Positions 8,725 through 16,901 of a stretch of DNA of 20,000 nt are shown in pieces; position 1 is the first letter of the stretch; every line of letters starts with the position of its first letter. Position numbers and translations under genes: made by a program. The notes under the pieces were generated by a model. That model searched no databases, was not told the DNA's origin, and saw only the letters and a program-made list of their open reading frames with translations. The DNA is from an uncultured virus (IMG/VR IMGVR_UViG_3300031884_000009). Its lineage: Duplodnaviria > Heunggongvirae > Uroviricota > Caudoviricetes. The stretch lies in the IMG/VR virus record IMGVR_UViG_3300031884_000009; one strand, given 5' to 3'.

Positions 8725-10377
8725 TTAATGACAATCAGCCCATGTATGTCCTACTTTGTATTCTGCACCTACGGGACATCTAAACTTTAAAATCTCTCCT
8801 GATTCTCTTGCTGCTTGTACTACTAATTTACCTACTTGTTCTCCGTACTGTTCAGGTGTTTCTATTTGAACCTCGTCGTGACACCAGGTTACTAGCTTAT
8901 AAGGTATCTTTGCTGCTGTCAAGTTCTTTTTGATTTGAACAAGCCACTGCTTAGCGATGATAGCCCCTGCACTTTGTAGTAACGTGTTGAGCGACGAATG
9001 AGCCGACCTGACCTTAAGTTGATAACCATGAAGCCCAGGTAGTGTTCCCTTTTCAGCAAGGCGTTCAACTTTGGATTTAAGCCTCGCATACGCTGGTATT
9101 GCTTTACTGAAGCTATTGATAATGTTGGCTCCTTGCTTCGCAGTGCCACCAATAACTGTACCAATCTTGGTTGGGGATGCTCCGTACAAAGTCGCATAAA
9201 GGACAGTCTTCGCAAGGTCTCTCGTCTCAACCCCGAAAGCTTGCTGATTTCTCGTGTGGACATCACCGTTGACTGTCTCATTTATGTAGTCCAAGTCATT
9301 AAGGTAATGAGCAAAACAACGCAGTTCAATACCAGACAAGTCAACACCCACAAGGACATTCCCCTTATCAACCGTCCAACACGAACGGAACTCTGTACCC
9401 AAAGTAGCTCGCACTGCTGGCACCTGAGCCATATTAGGGCTACTATGGGTAGCTCTGCCAGTAACAGCACCAAAACCAATAACTTTACCATGAACTCTCC
9501 CGTCCTTTCCTAGTTTTTCTAACCATGAATCTAATTGTGATGCTCTCTTTTGTAATGTCAAATATCTTGCAATAGGTTTAGCTTCCTCAAGCTGTACATC
9601 AGCAAGTACCGTCTCATCGACAATAATCTGCCCCTTCTCTGTAGTCTTGGTAGGCTTCCAACCTTTAGACATAAGACGCTTAGCAATCTGTTGACGTGAG
9701 CCAATATTAAATGCTTCAACATCATCTTTAAGTCTTTTACCAGTCTTCTCCGATACACGCTCCGTAACAATCGGAGGGAATATGGCTTGTAAAGCTTCTT
9801 CAATCTGAGCCATCTCAGTTTTAATTTCACAGAGCAACGTCTGTGCATACGGTTCATCAAGCTTGAATCCATTACGTTCCATCTCCGATAGAATTACTTG
9901 TACTTCATACTCTAGTTTAATAGCTTCGTCGCTAATCTTGTTAGCATCTAATTCTTTCCATAACATATCATATACTTTAGATGTAAGCTCTACGTCTCTT
10001 TGACAATACTCAAGCATAGTATCTGTAAGCCCGTCGTCATAAGCATTAAAATCTAATTTATGATAACCAAGAGTTTTACCCCACGAGTCTAAACTGTGTC
10101 CTCCTTCTCTGCTTGAATCAGATAAACGAGATAAAAGTAAAGTATCTTGAAGTTGAGATTTTCTTATTTTCGTATTCCATAAACGATTAAGGAGATAAGC
10201 ATCAAAAGCAAAAATATTGTGTCCCACGATAGTAATAGCATTTTCTAAATATTCCTTCAACCCTGTAGGTTCTTTCCATACTTTAATCTCTCCAGTTTCA
10301 CGATGTAAAGTAACCACGCACCAGACTATGTCATGTGCTAGGTTGGTTTCAATATCGAGGACTAAAGTCTTAAGCAT
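8725..10377 (-). CDS. polA: Family A DNA polymerase with 3'-5' exonuclease domain (T7 gp5-like)
   Basis: Exo motifs DIETN, GHNIFAFD, YCQRDV; pol motifs DLSGIELR, RDLAKTVLYATLYG, CHDEV. Confidence 0.97.
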   Translation of the reverse strand: MLKTLVLDIETNLAHDIVWCVVTLHRETGEIKVWKEPTGLKEYLENAITIVGHNIFAFDAYLLNRLWNTKIRKSQLQDTLLLSRLSDSSREGGHSLDSWGKTLGYHKLDFNAYDDGLTDTMLEYCQRDVELTSKVYDMLWKELDANKISDEAIKLEYEVQVILSEMERNGFKLDEPYAQTLLCEIKTEMAQIEEALQAIFPPIVTERVSEKTGKRLKDDVEAFNIGSRQQIAKRLMSKGWKPTKTTEKGQIIVDETVLADVQLEEAKPIARYLTLQKRASQLDSWLEKLGKDGRVHGKVIGFGAVTGRATHSSPNMAQVPAVRATLGTEFRSCWTVDKGNVLVGVDLSGIELRCFAHYLNDLDYINETVNGDVHTRNQQAFGVETRDLAKTVLYATLYGASPTKIGTVIGGTAKQGANIINSFSKAIPAYARLKSKVERLAEKGTLPGLHGYQLKVRSAHSSLNTLLQSAGAIIAKQWLVQIKKNLTAAKIPYKLVTWCHDEVQIETPEQYGEQVGKLVVQAARESGEILKFRCPVGAEYKVGHTWADCH

Positions 10378-10832: not shown

Positions 10833-11200
10833 AGTTTTCCTTTCTCGACTGCTTCATACCAGTCTTGTAAATATGTTATTAAAGATTCTTTACTGTTACC
10901 AATGAGGTTTAGTTTACCGTTACAGTTTAATACTTGTACTTTAGAAACGTATGCTTCTTCGTCAACATGACCTGTGATAATCAATACCGTATGAATTTTA
11001 GATAAAGATAATAACAGAATCTTTTGACCCATCGTCATCTTCTCACCTTCACGCTTCCATTCACCGAAGATAAACTTTCCTTTACGTTCAACTATCATGT
11101 CAATATTACTAGGCATGAAGTGAGGATTATCAGGAATCATTCCACGAAGGAAACCAAAGTCTACATGAGAAGCATTCGCATTACGCATAGCTGGTATCAT
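10829..11200 (-). CDS. Putative PD-(D/E)XK nuclease-like protein
   Basis: PSNIDMIVERKGKFIFGEWK fits a D-x(n)-E-x-K core. Confidence 0.55.
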   Translation of the reverse strand: MIPAMRNANASHVDFGFLRGMIPDNPHFMPSNIDMIVERKGKFIFGEWKREGEKMTMGQKILLLSLSKIHTVLIITGHVDEEAYVSKVQVLNCNGKLNLIGNSKESLITYLQDWYEAVEKGKL

Positions 11201-11201
11201 T

Positions 11202-11687
11202 TTAATTCATCCCATATCCACTGCATGTTCTATGGCAGTTTTCGTAAGACATCTCCCACCCTGCAGCCTCGTCTTTCAACGCCTCTATTTCTTTCATCTG
11301 GCTTAAATACGCTTCATCATGTAATAATTTGTCAGCTTTCAACGCCTCTATTTCAGCTTGTTGTTTGACAATTATTTTTTCTAAATCAGCAACATATTTA
11401 GGGTCTATTTCATTTGCGTTCATTTCTTTACCTTGTTCACGGAACATGAACTGCTCATTATTTTGAACACTAATTGACCTGTTCATCATTCCTTCTGCAT
11501 AACCTATTTGCTTTCCACGCTCAAAGGAATCTAAATAAAGCTGTTCTGCTGCAACTAACTGTGCTTTATCTTTGTCGTGCGTTTTGTACAAATATTCTAT
11601 TGTTTCTATTTGCTGATAAGCCCATAGTTGAATTTCCGAATCTGCTGTACCGTTTTTTAATGTTTGCAGTTTTCCGTGGTAGCTCAT
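11202..11687 (-). CDS. Hypothetical coiled-coil protein; apparent in-frame fusion of two cassettes (internal MNANE start at 11423)
   Basis: Starts at a junction repeat ATG; internal AAGG-TAAAGAA-ATGAACGCAAATGAA; two EIEALK modules. Confidence 0.7.
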   Translation of the reverse strand: MSYHGKLQTLKNGTADSEIQLWAYQQIETIEYLYKTHDKDKAQLVAAEQLYLDSFERGKQIGYAEGMMNRSISVQNNEQFMFREQGKEMNANEIDPKYVADLEKIIVKQQAEIEALKADKLLHDEAYLSQMKEIEALKDEAAGWEMSYENCHRTCSGYGMN

Positions 11688-11703
11688 TTATCTTGTGCCT
11701 TTC

Positions 11704-11796
11704 TTAACAATGGCTTGCTGAAAGTATTAAATAAAGAGCAATACCGCCAGCTATATAAATCATCACCCAAGATATTACGAAGTCTTTTGTGTTCAT
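11704..11796 (-). CDS. 30 aa single-TM peptide cassette
   Basis: Not in track. MNTKDFVISWVMIYIAGGIALYLILSASHC* starts and stops inside consecutive junction repeats. Confidence 0.65.
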   Translation of the reverse strand: MNTKDFVISWVMIYIAGGIALYLILSASHC

Positions 11797-12005
11797 TTCT
11801 CATTAGCCTTTCTTAACACAAACTGAATAAATTTAATCTCATCATAGCCAAGCCATATATCAAATTCTTCAGCTAATTTCAGTATTTCTTCTTTGTTTAG
11901 CGTCTTTGCTGGATGGGTATAGAGTGGAAGTGTATGAGCCATTCCATCTGTATAAAAAATATTTCCATCTTTATCCATCCACGCTACTGGTTCATTGTCC
12001 GTCAT
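11793..12005 (-). CDS. Hypothetical protein (EPVAWM...PLYTHP...LRKANEK)
   Basis: GAGG RBS; ends in a junction repeat. Confidence 0.75.
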   Translation of the reverse strand: MTDNEPVAWMDKDGNIFYTDGMAHTLPLYTHPAKTLNKEEILKLAEEFDIWLGYDEIKFIQFVLRKANEK

Positions 12006-12267
12006 AGCTAAACCTCAATTGTTCTTTTAACGCCTCTATTTCAGCATTAGCATCATCTAACAACGCTTTATTAGTTTCATTTTGAATGGCTATTTGTGAA
12101 TATTCATTTTCCCTATCCACGATTCTTGTTTGTAATGTTTCTATTTCAGCTTGTTGCTGGCGTAGCATAGTGGCTGCATTCATAACTAAATCTCTAGTAT
12201 CTGAATCACTAATAATTGGAGATTCTAAACAAACCCACAGTTCATCAATCAATTCATTTGCGTTCAT
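11992..12267 (-). CDS. Hypothetical coiled-coil protein (MNANE...MLRQQQAEIE)
   Basis: True start is the repeat ATG at 12267, not 12357. Confidence 0.75.
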   Translation of the reverse strand: MNANELIDELWVCLESPIISDSDTRDLVMNAATMLRQQQAEIETLQTRIVDRENEYSQIAIQNETNKALLDDANAEIEALKEQLRFSYDGQ

Positions 12268-12283
12268 TTCTCTTGTGCCTTTC

Positions 12284-12490
12284 TTAAACTGATAATGGTT
12301 CTTCAATAATCCAATCCAAACCATTGCCTTTGTTTTCAGGCAAAGTTGGAATATCACGCCACATATAATCTATTTGCGATTCGTAAGGTGCATCAGGAAT
12401 TGGCACATATAATCCCCATGCTTGCTGAAGAATCGGCATTTCACCACGCATTACATAACGCAAAGGTGTTAAAGGTTTCCAATATTTCAT
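12284..12490 (-). CDS. Hypothetical protein cassette
   Basis: Starts at a repeat ATG; its stop is the leading TAA of the next repeat. Confidence 0.7.
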   Translation of the reverse strand: MKYWKPLTPLRYVMRGEMPILQQAWGLYVPIPDAPYESQIDYMWRDIPTLPENKGNGLDWIIEEPLSV

Positions 12491-12864
12491 TTTTCATTAG
12501 CCTTTCCTCTTTTAATAAAGCCACATGCACAGCTTGAACATGATATTGCGTCATGCTTTGCTTTCAACGCCTCTATTTCAGCTTGTTGCTGGCGTAGCAT
12601 GGCTTCAGATTTTTGAATTATTGAGTATTCAAATTTAGACATACCATCTTGAAGCGTATCCATCTGACTTAATTGTTGAGCTAGTTCATTTGCGTTCATT
12701 TCTCTTGTGCCTTTCTTAGTATTTCTTAGTATTTCTTCGTACTTATCTAGCTCTTCGTCCGTTGTTCTTCCTACATAAACATCTTTATTATCAGGGTCTC
12801 GGATAAAACGTAGTTTAAGTAAGTCAAGGATTTCTAAATCACGATATAGCATTTTAGTAGTCAT
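12487..12864 (-). CDS. Hypothetical protein; fusion of two cassettes across a junction repeat (second start at 12699)
   Basis: Reads through the repeat as KKGTREM because of a 10-bp duplication at 12712-12731. Confidence 0.7.
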   Translation of the reverse strand: MTTKMLYRDLEILDLLKLRFIRDPDNKDVYVGRTTDEELDKYEEILRNTKKGTREMNANELAQQLSQMDTLQDGMSKFEYSIIQKSEAMLRQQQAEIEALKAKHDAISCSSCACGFIKRGKANEK

Positions 12865-12890
12865 TTCTCTTGTGCCTTTCTTAAATTAGG

Positions 12891-12975
12891 GGTTGACTGT
12901 GCAGACGGTAGCCAACCAATACCGTTAGCAATCGAGCGAGTTGTCTCACTCCAAGCACTACACTTGCTTTGCTAA
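12891..12975 (-). ncRNA. Candidate structured RNA (three-way junction with pseudoknot)
   Basis: P1 GUGUAG/CUGCAC, P2 GAGUGAG/CUCGCUC, P3 ACGGUA/UACCGU; loop GGUUGGC pairs with 3' GUCAACC; G-U pairs all favour the - strand. Confidence 0.55.
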
Positions 12976-13218
12976 TCATTTCTCTTGTGCTTTCTTTAGT
13001 ATTGCTCTAGCAAAAACTAACTGTCTTTCTGCGGTGGAATTATTTGAAAATACATCAAGCCAAATATCACATATCTCATCATCACTTAACTCACGAGGTT
13101 TTGTGGATAATTGACCGCCCTCAAATGCCATAGCAATCAGCTTTCTAATCTCAGGACTGACCGCCATCTGAGTTATGTTTGCATCCCACCAACGGGTAAA
13201 TGGAGATTGATAGTTCAT
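12976..13218 (-). CDS. Hypothetical protein (LSDDEI...FARAILKKAQEK)
   Basis: Starts and ends in junction repeats. Confidence 0.75.
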   Translation of the reverse strand: MNYQSPFTRWWDANITQMAVSPEIRKLIAMAFEGGQLSTKPRELSDDEICDIWLDVFSNNSTAERQLVFARAILKKAQEK

Positions 13219-13427
13219 TTCTCTTGTGCCTTTCTTAGTATTGCTCTAGCAAACTGAATTCCATCACTTTCTAACACCAAATCACTATAACGCCATAAAT
13301 TGTCATCTTGAAATACTTGTGCAATTTCTGCATCTGTTAGTGTTTTTACTTTATTGGTTTTAAGTCCTTCAGCATACCCAAACGCTTTACCACGCTCAAA
13401 AACTTCTAATACTAATTTCTCACTCAT
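13215..13427 (-). CDS. Hypothetical protein (LTDAEI...FARAILRKAQEK)
   Basis: ATGA-coupled to the helicase; ends in a junction repeat. Confidence 0.75.
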   Translation of the reverse strand: MSEKLVLEVFERGKAFGYAEGLKTNKVKTLTDAEIAQVFQDDNLWRYSDLVLESDGIQFARAILRKAQEK

Positions 13428-15001
13428 AATACATCCTCCATTTCAAGCATTCGTCCAGAGTCTTTATTGTATAACAACGAAGCACAATGGGGTGAAGTTA
13501 ATCCTGAAAATCTATTTTTTAAAATGGAAACCCTGGTAGTGTTGCGTTCAATAGGGTCTTCAGCTTGAGCATTACGAACCAATCCAATAACAATGTCACT
13601 AAGTTGGGCGATAGAAGCAGAACCACGCAACTGAGACAATGATGTCGCAGCCCCTTCCTCATGTCCCTTACTATCTGGCCTCTTCAGATGTGACACAGCA
13701 ATAAGACACACTCCAGTTTCTTGAACTAACATACGCAACTTCGTCATTAACTCATCAATAGCCTTGCGCTCATCACCGTTAGATTGTGCAGAAATAATCA
13801 TTGAAATATGGTCTAAAAAGATATACTTGCAATCTGCTGCTTTAGCGAAGTATCGAATACGATTCATCACGTTGTCAATATCCGTAGAACCAAAGTTATC
13901 CCATAAATACAATCTATCTGTACCCATCGTAGCATCAAAGGACTGCTTGAGTTCTTCATTACTTACTAAAGTGTCAGGTAAATGTAAAGGTTTGTTCAAG
14001 TGTAAAGACATAATACTTCTCGCTGTCTTACGTACAGATTCTTCCATAAACATTAAGCCAATGTTAGAGTCTGTAGTCTGTATCAAGTGCCAGAGAATCT
14101 CACGCAAGAATTGAGACTTACCTAGTCCTGAACCTGCACAGACTGTGATAAGCTCTGCTGGACGGATTCCATAGGTAAGCTCGTTGACTCCTGCCCAAGG
14201 ATAGAGGGCTGACGATTTCTCCACAGGTCTATTAACTTCTTCCCATAACGAAGAACCTGCGATAATTCCATCCGGTGTCCATTGCTCTGCTGCCCACCAT
14301 TGCTTAACATAATCAGCTCCTTTACCTACTGCAAGATAATCACAAGCATCTTTAAAACCTGCTACGTGCTTCACAATCTTACACTTGCTACCTAGAATCT
14401 CTGCTACTTCATTCGCTGCCTTCTGTCCAGGCTCATCAGCATCAAAGCAGATATAGATATTCTCAAAGGAAGATAACCACTCATAAGAGGCTTTAACGTC
14501 CTTTAGAGCTGCTTGTGCTCCGTTACGTACTGAGACATTAGCGTACTTGCTACCACTCATCTGGAACCCTGCTAGGGCATCTAGCTCACCTTCATGGATA
14601 GTGACAGTCTTACCGCCTTTAGGAAATAACTGCTGACCGAATAAAGTCGTATGTTTCCACTCTCCAGAGATACCAAAAGTCTTATGCTCAACATTACGAT
14701 TCTTGGTAGCTACAATAATACCTTCTGCATCTGCGTAGGGATAGAACTGTGAAGTCCCATCTTGAGTTACTCCGTAATATTGGCAAGTATCTCGTGTGAT
14801 GCCTCTGTCGCTAATCGACATAATACTGCCTTTAACTTCTAACATATTCTTCTTCCTTGTAGGTGCAACATAACTTTCTGTTCCATCGCCTTTAATGTGA
14901 TTACCACACACATGACAATATTCGTGATGGTCATCATACAATGAATTCCCATCGGAGCTACCGCATTTAAGACATGGAATGTGCTTAAGGAAATTAGACA
15001 C
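13424..15001 (-). CDS. DNA primase/helicase (T7 gp4-like)
   Basis: Zn finger CLKC...CHVC; TOPRIM EGELD and CFDADEPG; Walker A AGSGLGKS; FLDHIS; LRGSASIAQLSD; KNRF. Confidence 0.97.
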   Translation of the reverse strand: MSNFLKHIPCLKCGSSDGNSLYDDHHEYCHVCGNHIKGDGTESYVAPTRKKNMLEVKGSIMSISDRGITRDTCQYYGVTQDGTSQFYPYADAEGIIVATKNRNVEHKTFGISGEWKHTTLFGQQLFPKGGKTVTIHEGELDALAGFQMSGSKYANVSVRNGAQAALKDVKASYEWLSSFENIYICFDADEPGQKAANEVAEILGSKCKIVKHVAGFKDACDYLAVGKGADYVKQWWAAEQWTPDGIIAGSSLWEEVNRPVEKSSALYPWAGVNELTYGIRPAELITVCAGSGLGKSQFLREILWHLIQTTDSNIGLMFMEESVRKTARSIMSLHLNKPLHLPDTLVSNEELKQSFDATMGTDRLYLWDNFGSTDIDNVMNRIRYFAKAADCKYIFLDHISMIISAQSNGDERKAIDELMTKLRMLVQETGVCLIAVSHLKRPDSKGHEEGAATSLSQLRGSASIAQLSDIVIGLVRNAQAEDPIERNTTRVSILKNRFSGLTSPHCASLLYNKDSGRMLEMEDVL

Positions 15002-16618: not shown

Positions 16619-16737
16619 TATACATTCCTATGGTATGCGTCATGCGGATGCGTAAGCATACTTTTCACTAACTCATCAACAGATGAGAACCATTGTATCA
16701 CCTTTAAGCCATCTTGCTGATAAATAGTAAAGCTCAT
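16618..16737 (-). CDS. 39 aa hypothetical protein
   Basis: MSFTIYQQDGLKVIQWFSSVDELVKSMLTHPHDAYHRNV*; starts at the ATG of the ninth junction repeat. Confidence 0.65.
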   Translation of the reverse strand: MSFTIYQQDGLKVIQWFSSVDELVKSMLTHPHDAYHRNV

Positions 16738-16901
16738 TTTTCTTGTGCCTTTCTTTCCATTTCTTCATACTCAGTCCAATGCAAAACATCAGAAGCTGTA
16801 GGATATTTTTCCCATACATCAGCACCTACTAAAGCATCTACTTCAATCCATTCCCATACCAGTTTAGGTATCCTTGCGTAATATGTAGTGTTTGCGCTCA
16901 T
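16734..16901 (-). CDS. 55 aa hypothetical protein ending RKAQEK
   Basis: MSANTTYYARIPKLVWEW...EEMERKAQEK*; ends in a junction repeat. Confidence 0.65.
   Translation of the reverse strand: MSANTTYYARIPKLVWEWIEVDALVGADVWEKYPTASDVLHWTEYEEMERKAQEK

Follow-up and report, generated by a model that had tools for sequence, protein, structure and literature searches.

The 92-nt cassette at 12884-12975, on the - strand of the window (the whole stretch of viral DNA analysed, 20,000 nt), is probably a mobile RNA module, with the fold as its selected product. As far as the sequences compared can tell, it represents an RNA family that is new and narrow, in an array, itself widespread, where cassettes are shuffled. 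Selection on the nucleotide fold, and not on a peptide, is supported for three of its helices (P1, P2 and H_b), because the proposed pairs are kept in all homologues, because substitutions relocated at random leave every pair intact in 0.0001 of trials, and because a near-invariant core is read in two reading frames, sharing 1 of 24 residues. Phage accessory regions are read almost wholly as lists of small ORFs: here, what a gene caller would report as a 'protein' of 32-39 aa seems to be selected for an RNA fold. Confirmation would add an uncatalogued RNA family, and would mean that cargo made of RNA only also travels in these arrays, to which one usually turns for anti-defence and host-takeover functions.

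Genomic setting and anatomy of the cassette

The window carries the replication module of a phage, read on the - strand; in the PHROGs annotation, exonucleases and a DNA methyltransferase are likewise encoded in it. An array of small ORFs sits between the primase/helicase and the polymerase genes, localized as follows:

13424-15001, - strand: primase/helicase (PHROGs)
8725-10377, - strand: family-A DNA polymerase (PHROGs)

The ORFs of the array are linked by a conserved junction of about 24 nt (..CTAAGAAAGGCACAAGAGAAATGA), which is a translational stop/start signal: frame 1 encodes the C-terminus of the previous protein (..LRKAQEK), with a TGA overlapping the next ATG, frame 2 leads to a TAA stop, and frame 3 is open through into the next gene. 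The 21-nt junction core is found exact, by pattern scan, in at least 130 IMG/VR stretches, and 268 distinct junction contexts are present in the loci compared. That the nucleotide sequence itself is kept next to unrelated genes suggests that the junction is a hotspot of recombination, that it signals translation, or that it does both. Two complete relatives, 43.5 and 45.7 kb long and bearing direct terminal repeats, have their junctions clustered in one small region, in a single orientation. A simple scan of 11000-14000 predicted three promoter-like sites, none of them at any junction, and no terminator-like site; the cassette borders feature neither. A reading of the cassette as an intrinsic terminator was rejected, given the absence of terminator-like sites in that interval.

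Within the window, junctions lie on the - strand at 11673-13237 and 16723-16756; they are also found in loci L003-L132. The upstream coding tail FARAILRKAQEK* is common to about a quarter of the junction contexts (68 out of 268). The cassette proteins (11202-13427 of the window, - strand, and many other loci) are mosaics of recurring modules: an N-terminal MNANEL.., the coiled-coil MLRQQQAEIEALK, a PLYTHP(A/V)K.LTDEEI motif and the FARAILRKAQEK tail, none of which has a match in PHROGs. Many inter-junction cassettes encode peptides of 24-50 aa, hydrophobic or membrane-like in appearance, which terminate in LRKAQEK* or at the junction TAA; examples are found in L094, L075, L066, L047, L136 and L079, and at 11704-11796 of the window. 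The same junctions and coiled-coil module are present at 27187-35640 of MW202753.1 (L002), a GenBank phage from a spring, circular and 35.6 kb long, where the junction array of hypothetical genes adjoins an exonuclease gene and an antirestriction gene.

The cassette is exactly bounded by two junction repeats. All helices and complementarities, and the ORF at 12979-12881, that a preliminary description had placed by inspection of the window are located exactly where it had put them. The H_b hairpin, absent from that model, was added by RNAalifold. The features are the following:

12977-12997, - strand: upstream junction repeat; the gene before it stops here (..ILKKAQEK, TGA overlapping ATG), and the cassette ATG lies at 12979-12977
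12884-12975, - strand: 92-nt cassette body, structured RNA candidate on the basis of sequence and homologue pairing
12881-12979, - strand: 32-codon ORF (MISKASVVLGVRQLARLLTVLVGYRLHSQPLI*), ending at a TAA within the downstream junction
12969-12975, - strand: 5' strand of H_a, UUAGCAA, pairing with 12925-12931 and beginning 2 nt past the AUG
12954-12968, - strand: H_b hairpin, 12968-12965 with 12957-12954 (RNAalifold)
12953-12954, - strand: site of a 1-nt indel, with an extra A in the 93-nt class; the window belongs to the 92-nt class
12934-12951, - strand: P2 hairpin, GAGUGAG-ACAA-CUCGCUC, 7 bp and a tetraloop, the best-supported helix
12925-12931, - strand: 3' strand of H_a, UUGCUAA, within the stretch that joins P2 to P3
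12905-12925, - strand: P3 hairpin, ACGGUA-UUGGUUGGC-UACCGU, 6 bp and a 9-nt loop, nearly invariant
12899-12904, - strand: 3' strand of P1, CUGCAC, pairing with GUGUAG at 12963-12958
12891-12897, - strand: 3' tail, GUCAACC, complementary to GGUUGGC in the P3 loop (12917-12911)
12862-12882, - strand: downstream junction repeat, including the ATG (12864-12862) from which the next gene, 12487-12864, starts

H_a corresponds to the 5'-end complementarity of the preliminary description, UAGCAA (12974-12969) with UUGCUA (12931-12926). H_b consists of 4 bp (columns 12-15 with 23-26 of the alignment), and its 7-nt loop holds the 5' strand of P1 (12963-12958). The complementarity between P3 loop and tail may correspond either to a loop-tail pseudoknot or to an alternative hairpin. 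The downstream junction is unpaired in all predicted folds. As described from the window, the non-Watson-Crick pairs of this copy are three, all G.U, and the cassette is more GC-rich than its surroundings: 47.8%, against 37.8% for the window, where 6.3% of all 92-nt windows are equally or more GC-rich.

The next gene, a 125-aa ORF at 12487-12864, is made of two fused cassettes. At the fusion site (12690-12745, - strand) 10 nt of the junction are duplicated in tandem (..ATACTAAGAA twice), so that the frame is shifted and the sequence reads through as ..EEILRNTKKGTREMNANE... The fused form is common to L171 and L191; the unfused form, ending in ..EEILRKAQEK*, is found in the relative L189.

Conservation of the pairing and of the reading frames

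Thirty full copies of the cassette are available, not all of them independent, since a contig is in some cases, to judge from equal lengths, evidently recorded both in IMG/VR and among the metagenomes; they correspond to 10 distinct sequences, with a mean identity of 93%. A BLAST search of the first 131 junction loci led to two contigs. Pattern scans of IMG/VR gave 12 contigs with a full copy, including a 100% identical twin of the window (L001), together with a copy cut short where its contig ends (L162) and two unrelated matches (L158, L220). The 31 stretches found by the metagenome scan include 18 full copies, 4 truncated ones and 9 from an unrelated bacterial gene; the latter two groups were excluded from the alignment (A1). 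Little was found elsewhere: among GenBank phages, MW202753.1 matched in its junction repeats only, and the remaining matches, of 19-28 nt, are due to chance; in one scan of GTDB species genomes, two chance matches, with no similarity beyond the pattern; in the four DNA runs examined, no new cassette variants. A covariance model finds one copy per phage record, and one in the window; when it was run on 98 junction-array loci (232 kb), it returned only two copies, both already known.

The cassette moves as a unit between junction repeats, as had been proposed: at least 12 distinct combinations of upstream and downstream genes are found, with a junction on both sides every time and always in the sense orientation. 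Contigs of two further runs and three metagenome loci contain the 92-nt form of the window without a single difference; since these assemblies are independent, its length is not an assembly error. The phage is a persistent lake population. The region 12400-13500 of the window is present, at 0.57-0.97 of the sampled words, in 21 lake or freshwater metagenome runs from 2016 to 2023, and partly present in three more, back to 2012. No RNA run is among these 24, and two of the runs may be the source of the window. In one of the unrelated matches (L158, 601-640), the opening 22 nt of a viral gene (MIRKAS..) are nearly those of the cassette, and all similarity ends there; this could be a recombination scar or a chance likeness.

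The structure was drawn from the window alone, before any homologue was seen, and the homologues therefore constitute an independent test of it. All 32 proposed pairs are paired in all ten sequences (320 out of 320 cells), while in a control, where partners were slid by 1-3 columns, only 30-42% of the cells are paired. Compensatory change, the absence of which would have spoken against the fold, is present in P1 and P2: both sides are changed at three pairs, 20/79 (P1), 31/46 and 32/45 (P2). The observed percent paired, number of doubly changed cells and covariation score are not reached by any of 500 column shuffles. Significance is lacking for two measures: pairs changed on both sides (3 in number, matched by 72 of the 500 shuffles) and further pair types (10, against a shuffled mean of 11.3). 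Twelve of the 20 variable substitution columns fall within the 64 paired columns, and none breaks any pair. When substitutions were relocated to random columns with the same majority base, all pairs survived in only 0.0001 of 20,000 trials, the mean number of broken cells being 18.

With the inclusion of H_b, for a total of six helices, 360 out of 360 cells are paired, four pairs are doubly changed, with G.U intermediates for two of them, and three more variable columns are explained; H_b was chosen by RNAalifold on this same alignment, which is not an independent test of it. G.U pairs occupy 34 of the 360 cells and would be A.C on the opposite strand: the fold accordingly belongs to the sense strand. 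The variation found in each helix is reported below, as alignment columns, type of pair and number of sequences (out of ten):

H_a: 9/52, CG 9, UG 1; remaining pairs invariant
H_b: 13/25, GC 6, AU 3, GU 1; 12/26, AU 5, GU 5
P1: 20/79, UA 5, CG 4, UG 1; 17/82, GC 8, GU 2
P2: 31/46, AU 5, GC 5; 32/45, GC 8, AU 2; 33/44, UG 8, UA 2; 35/42, GU 7, AU 3
P3: 60/72, UA 9, UG 1; other pairs invariant
Loop-tail helix: 69/85, GU 8, GC 2

To judge from this variation, support is uneven: strong for P2, moderate for P1 and H_b. H_a, P3 and the loop-tail helix appear compatible with the alignment, each through a single one-sided, wobble-compatible change. The pseudoknotted three-way junction of the preliminary description thus stands in part: its pairs are possible in ten sequences out of ten and change in a compensatory way in P1 and P2, but the pseudoknots and P3 vary by one one-sided change each. 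The family is small and young, and narrow enough that about a dozen substitution events carry the whole pairing argument. Invariant unpaired bases are only five: A16, G48, A49, U62 and U63 (alignment columns).

The reading frames were compared along the same alignment. A 1-nt indel at column 27 (between 12954 and 12953) divides the family into classes. The 93-nt class (four types, 16 of the 30 copies) encodes MISKASVVLG..PIANGIGWLPSTQSTPNLRKAQEK*; the 92-nt class (five types, 10 of the 30 copies, including the window) encodes ..QLARLLTVLVGYRLHSQPLI* and ends at the junction TAA. A hybrid type (L148, 4 copies) combines the deletion with an extra C near the 3' end, and is brought back to ..NLRKAQYK*. 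The core at 12933-12903, where a single position (12909) is variable, is thus read in two frames, whose peptides have 1 of 24 residues in common. In the 39-aa frame, 2 of the variable codon sites are synonymous and 4 non-synonymous; in the 32-aa frame, the counts are 5 and 6. A phmmer search of 1.84 billion representatives gave six matches, and just one of these, 39 aa long and 95% identical, covers the full length; five are to proteins of 164-2644 aa and were taken as probable low-complexity matches. No single peptide is conserved across the family, and the common frame expected of a small protein gene is lacking. The finding is the reverse of stem-breaking changes around a conserved peptide: no stem is broken, and two frames are in use.

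These data bear on the possibility that the cassette is an ordinary micro-gene for a 32-39 aa peptide, its pairing being incidental or merely tuning translation. Several features agree with such a gene: the cassette ATG lies behind the same junction as in all other cassettes; the ATG-initiated frame, with its ATG within the junction, is open to the next junction in ten variants out of ten, and in the hybrid the second indel restores the canonical C-terminus; cassettes for 24-50 aa are common in the arrays; 5 of the 11 variable codon sites are synonymous in the 32-aa frame; and the 39-aa product (P0001) is predicted by gene callers. A micro-gene is nevertheless unlikely, given that the invariant core is used in two frames with hardly a residue in common, that both length classes occur in several phages, and that the variable sites of the 39-aa frame, mostly non-synonymous, are clustered in P2, where they are compensatory in the RNA. 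Moreover, the peptide belongs to no protein family past near-identical copies, and the cassette is an outlier among the short cassettes of the arrays, both for GC content and for folding energy (see below). The earlier claim of an RNA in place of a protein gene consequently holds as to the pairing, which is conserved while the peptide is not, and is weakened by the open ATG frame, kept by all ten variants. This frame and the restored end of the hybrid are the reasons why translation through the element may matter, for instance through coupling with the downstream gene. A -1 frameshifting signal was rejected by inspection: no slippery heptamer is seen ahead of the fold, and a shift is unnecessary in the 93-nt class.

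Folding energies and proposed function

The folding of the cassette as a single sequence is not beyond chance. The window copy has a minimum free energy (MFE) of -27.4 kcal/mol (z = -1.67), and 10 of 200 shuffled sequences fold at least as well. Its MFE fold is a different nested structure, composed of the helix between 5' end and junction, P2 and the loop-tail helix, without P1 or P3. Across nine sense variants, z goes from -0.46 to -2.11, compared with -1.41 for the window's antisense strand. MFE folds vary among variants, with low ensemble frequency, and in every variant the nested three-way junction sits 4-8 kcal/mol above the MFE. When compared to the other short cassettes, in a set of 74 distinct inter-junction segments of up to 200 nt, the family is an outlier in both GC (0.45-0.51, against 0.24-0.42) and MFE per nt (-0.28 to -0.32, against -0.09 to -0.26); in this comparison the consensus junction was appended before translation, so that the last residues shown are those of the consensus.

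Unremarkable z-scores, with the antisense strand about equal to the sense one, would be expected if the cassette were a neutral, recently spread remnant, such as a fragment of a GC-richer gene, its self-complementarity being accidental and spared by the substitutions only by coincidence. Helices of 6-7 bp are, by estimate and not by computation, expected by chance in any 92-nt sequence, the distinct sequences are only ten, with 93% identity, and the count of covarying pairs is equalled by 72 shuffles out of 500. Such a remnant is, however, improbable: it does not account for the result of the relocation test (0.0001), nor for the four completed double substitutions, two of them with observed G.U intermediates, nor for exact borders maintained in at least 12 contexts and in lake metagenome runs from 2012 to 2023. 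The folding of same-strand ssDNA, for example as a replication or recombination signal of the module, would fit the position between primase/helicase and DNA polymerase genes, DNA hairpins tolerate G.T wobbles, and pairing statistics are the same for RNA and same-sense ssDNA, but this is very improbable for an accessory element, swapped among gene contexts, found by the covariance model in only 2 of 98 junction-array loci, in one copy per phage record and always in sense between translational junctions, since such accessory, exchanged, sense-only behaviour is unlike that of an essential origin.

As an RNA module, the cassette would be one part of the long - strand transcript of the replication module. 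Some 80 of the approximately 87 internal bases of the cassette would pair into six short helices (H_a, H_b, P1, P2, P3 and loop-tail), and the outcome would be a single compact, pseudoknotted domain or else two nested folds, alternative to each other. H_b and P1, by structural reasoning, would make a classical H-type pseudoknot with a 1-nt first loop; the coexistence of P3 and the loop-tail helix with P1 is, on the same kind of reasoning, sterically uncertain. The fold, beginning 2 nt after the cassette AUG, would compete there with ribosome loading, and the next junction, where the downstream gene starts, would stay free of it. Phages would swap the cassette by recombination in the conserved stop/start junctions, as they would do with its protein-coding neighbours.

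The pattern of conservation looks more like that of a compact scaffold than of a ligand pocket or a ribozyme core, because nearly all bases are helical, P2 varies while it keeps pairing, and the core is invariant. Tentatively, the role may be that of a compact domain, resistant to nucleases and ribosomes, that stabilises the flanking message or persists as an RNA of about 100 nt, possibly a protein-binding decoy; such a stable RNA would arise by cleavage in the A/U-rich junctions. The next most likely role, itself rather doubtful, would be a throttle on translational coupling to the downstream gene. A ribozyme would be hardly probable, and so would a metabolite aptamer.

Comparison with known RNAs and cassette systems

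The absence of a recognisable known family, reported in the preliminary description, agrees with the searches. With E up to 10, Rfam 15 gave five weak matches over 3,001 bases, all far below gathering scores and none overlapping 12884-12975, and no match over the 161 bases around the cassette, where xrRNA, HDV-like, hammerhead, twister, pistol, hatchet and riboswitch models were among those searched. ARAGORN found no tRNA or tmRNA genes in the window.

In flaviviral xrRNAs, the 5' end pairs with the junction between hairpins, next to a three-way junction, and the loop of the last hairpin pairs with the 3' tail. Such an RNA is described as 71 nt long, with four helices, several pseudoknot-like contacts and resistance to 5'->3' nucleases (PMC7385498). 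The cassette is similar in size to Zika xrRNA1 (PDB 5TPY), and the strand order of the latter equals that of the model drawn from the window. The pairs of the xrRNA type can form in ten sequences out of ten, where the pseudoknot helices and P3 vary at one pair, on one side. Unlike the xrRNA, the cassette would have a 5' pairing of 6-7 bp, lies within an ORF of a DNA phage and has no match in Rfam, and its pseudoknots appear barely supported by the alignment. By analogy, a knot-like double-pseudoknot domain, mechanically blocking a processive enzyme, would make the cassette a phage counterpart of the flaviviral xrRNA, in the form of an exchangeable accessory element; this is decidedly unlikely. 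Candidates for the blocked enzyme are the ribosome and exonucleases of either polarity, 5'->3' (such as RNase J, an exoribonuclease) or 3'->5'. If true, no DNA phage would have provided such a knot before, and a cassette-shuffling system would include a 'gene' made of RNA only.

HDV-like ribozymes are nested double pseudoknots, in which the first helix measures 7 bp, the second closes at the 3' side and two hairpins lie inside; they feature a catalytic C in the J4/2 linker, a P1.1 and a 3-bp P3 with a loop of 7-8 nt. The strand order is common to these ribozymes and the cassette. Membership was rejected, because 12905 abuts 12904 and 12925 is common to H_a and P3, so that both linkers, expected to hold P1.1 and the catalytic C, measure 0 nt and leave no room for P1.1. 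The internal hairpin, in addition, has 7 bp and a 4-nt loop, and no Rfam ribozyme is matched.

Structured RNAs occur in phage operons: examples are the pseudoknot of the T4 gene 32 mRNA and the DicF sRNA, cut from a prophage operon of small genes. Like these, the cassette would be a folded domain in a polycistronic phage message, sense-specific and without a promoter or terminator of its own. It differs from them in that it has no similarity of sequence or model, it is not bound to a particular neighbour gene, and it features hardly any conserved single-stranded region that could correspond to a seed or an operator. A search for targets of the P3 loop found 5 loop complements in the window, against 3.25 expected.

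For junction-mediated exchange among different gene neighbourhoods, the nearest analogue is provided by the PeSL cassettes of T4-type phages, where short conserved flanks around small accessory genes are described as mediating modular shuffling between related phages (PMC2839356, PMC4122927). The flanks of a PeSL cassette consist of promoter and stem-loop terminator motifs; the junction described here features neither in the simple scan and encodes ..LRKAQEK*. The cargo of this cassette is apparently an RNA fold.
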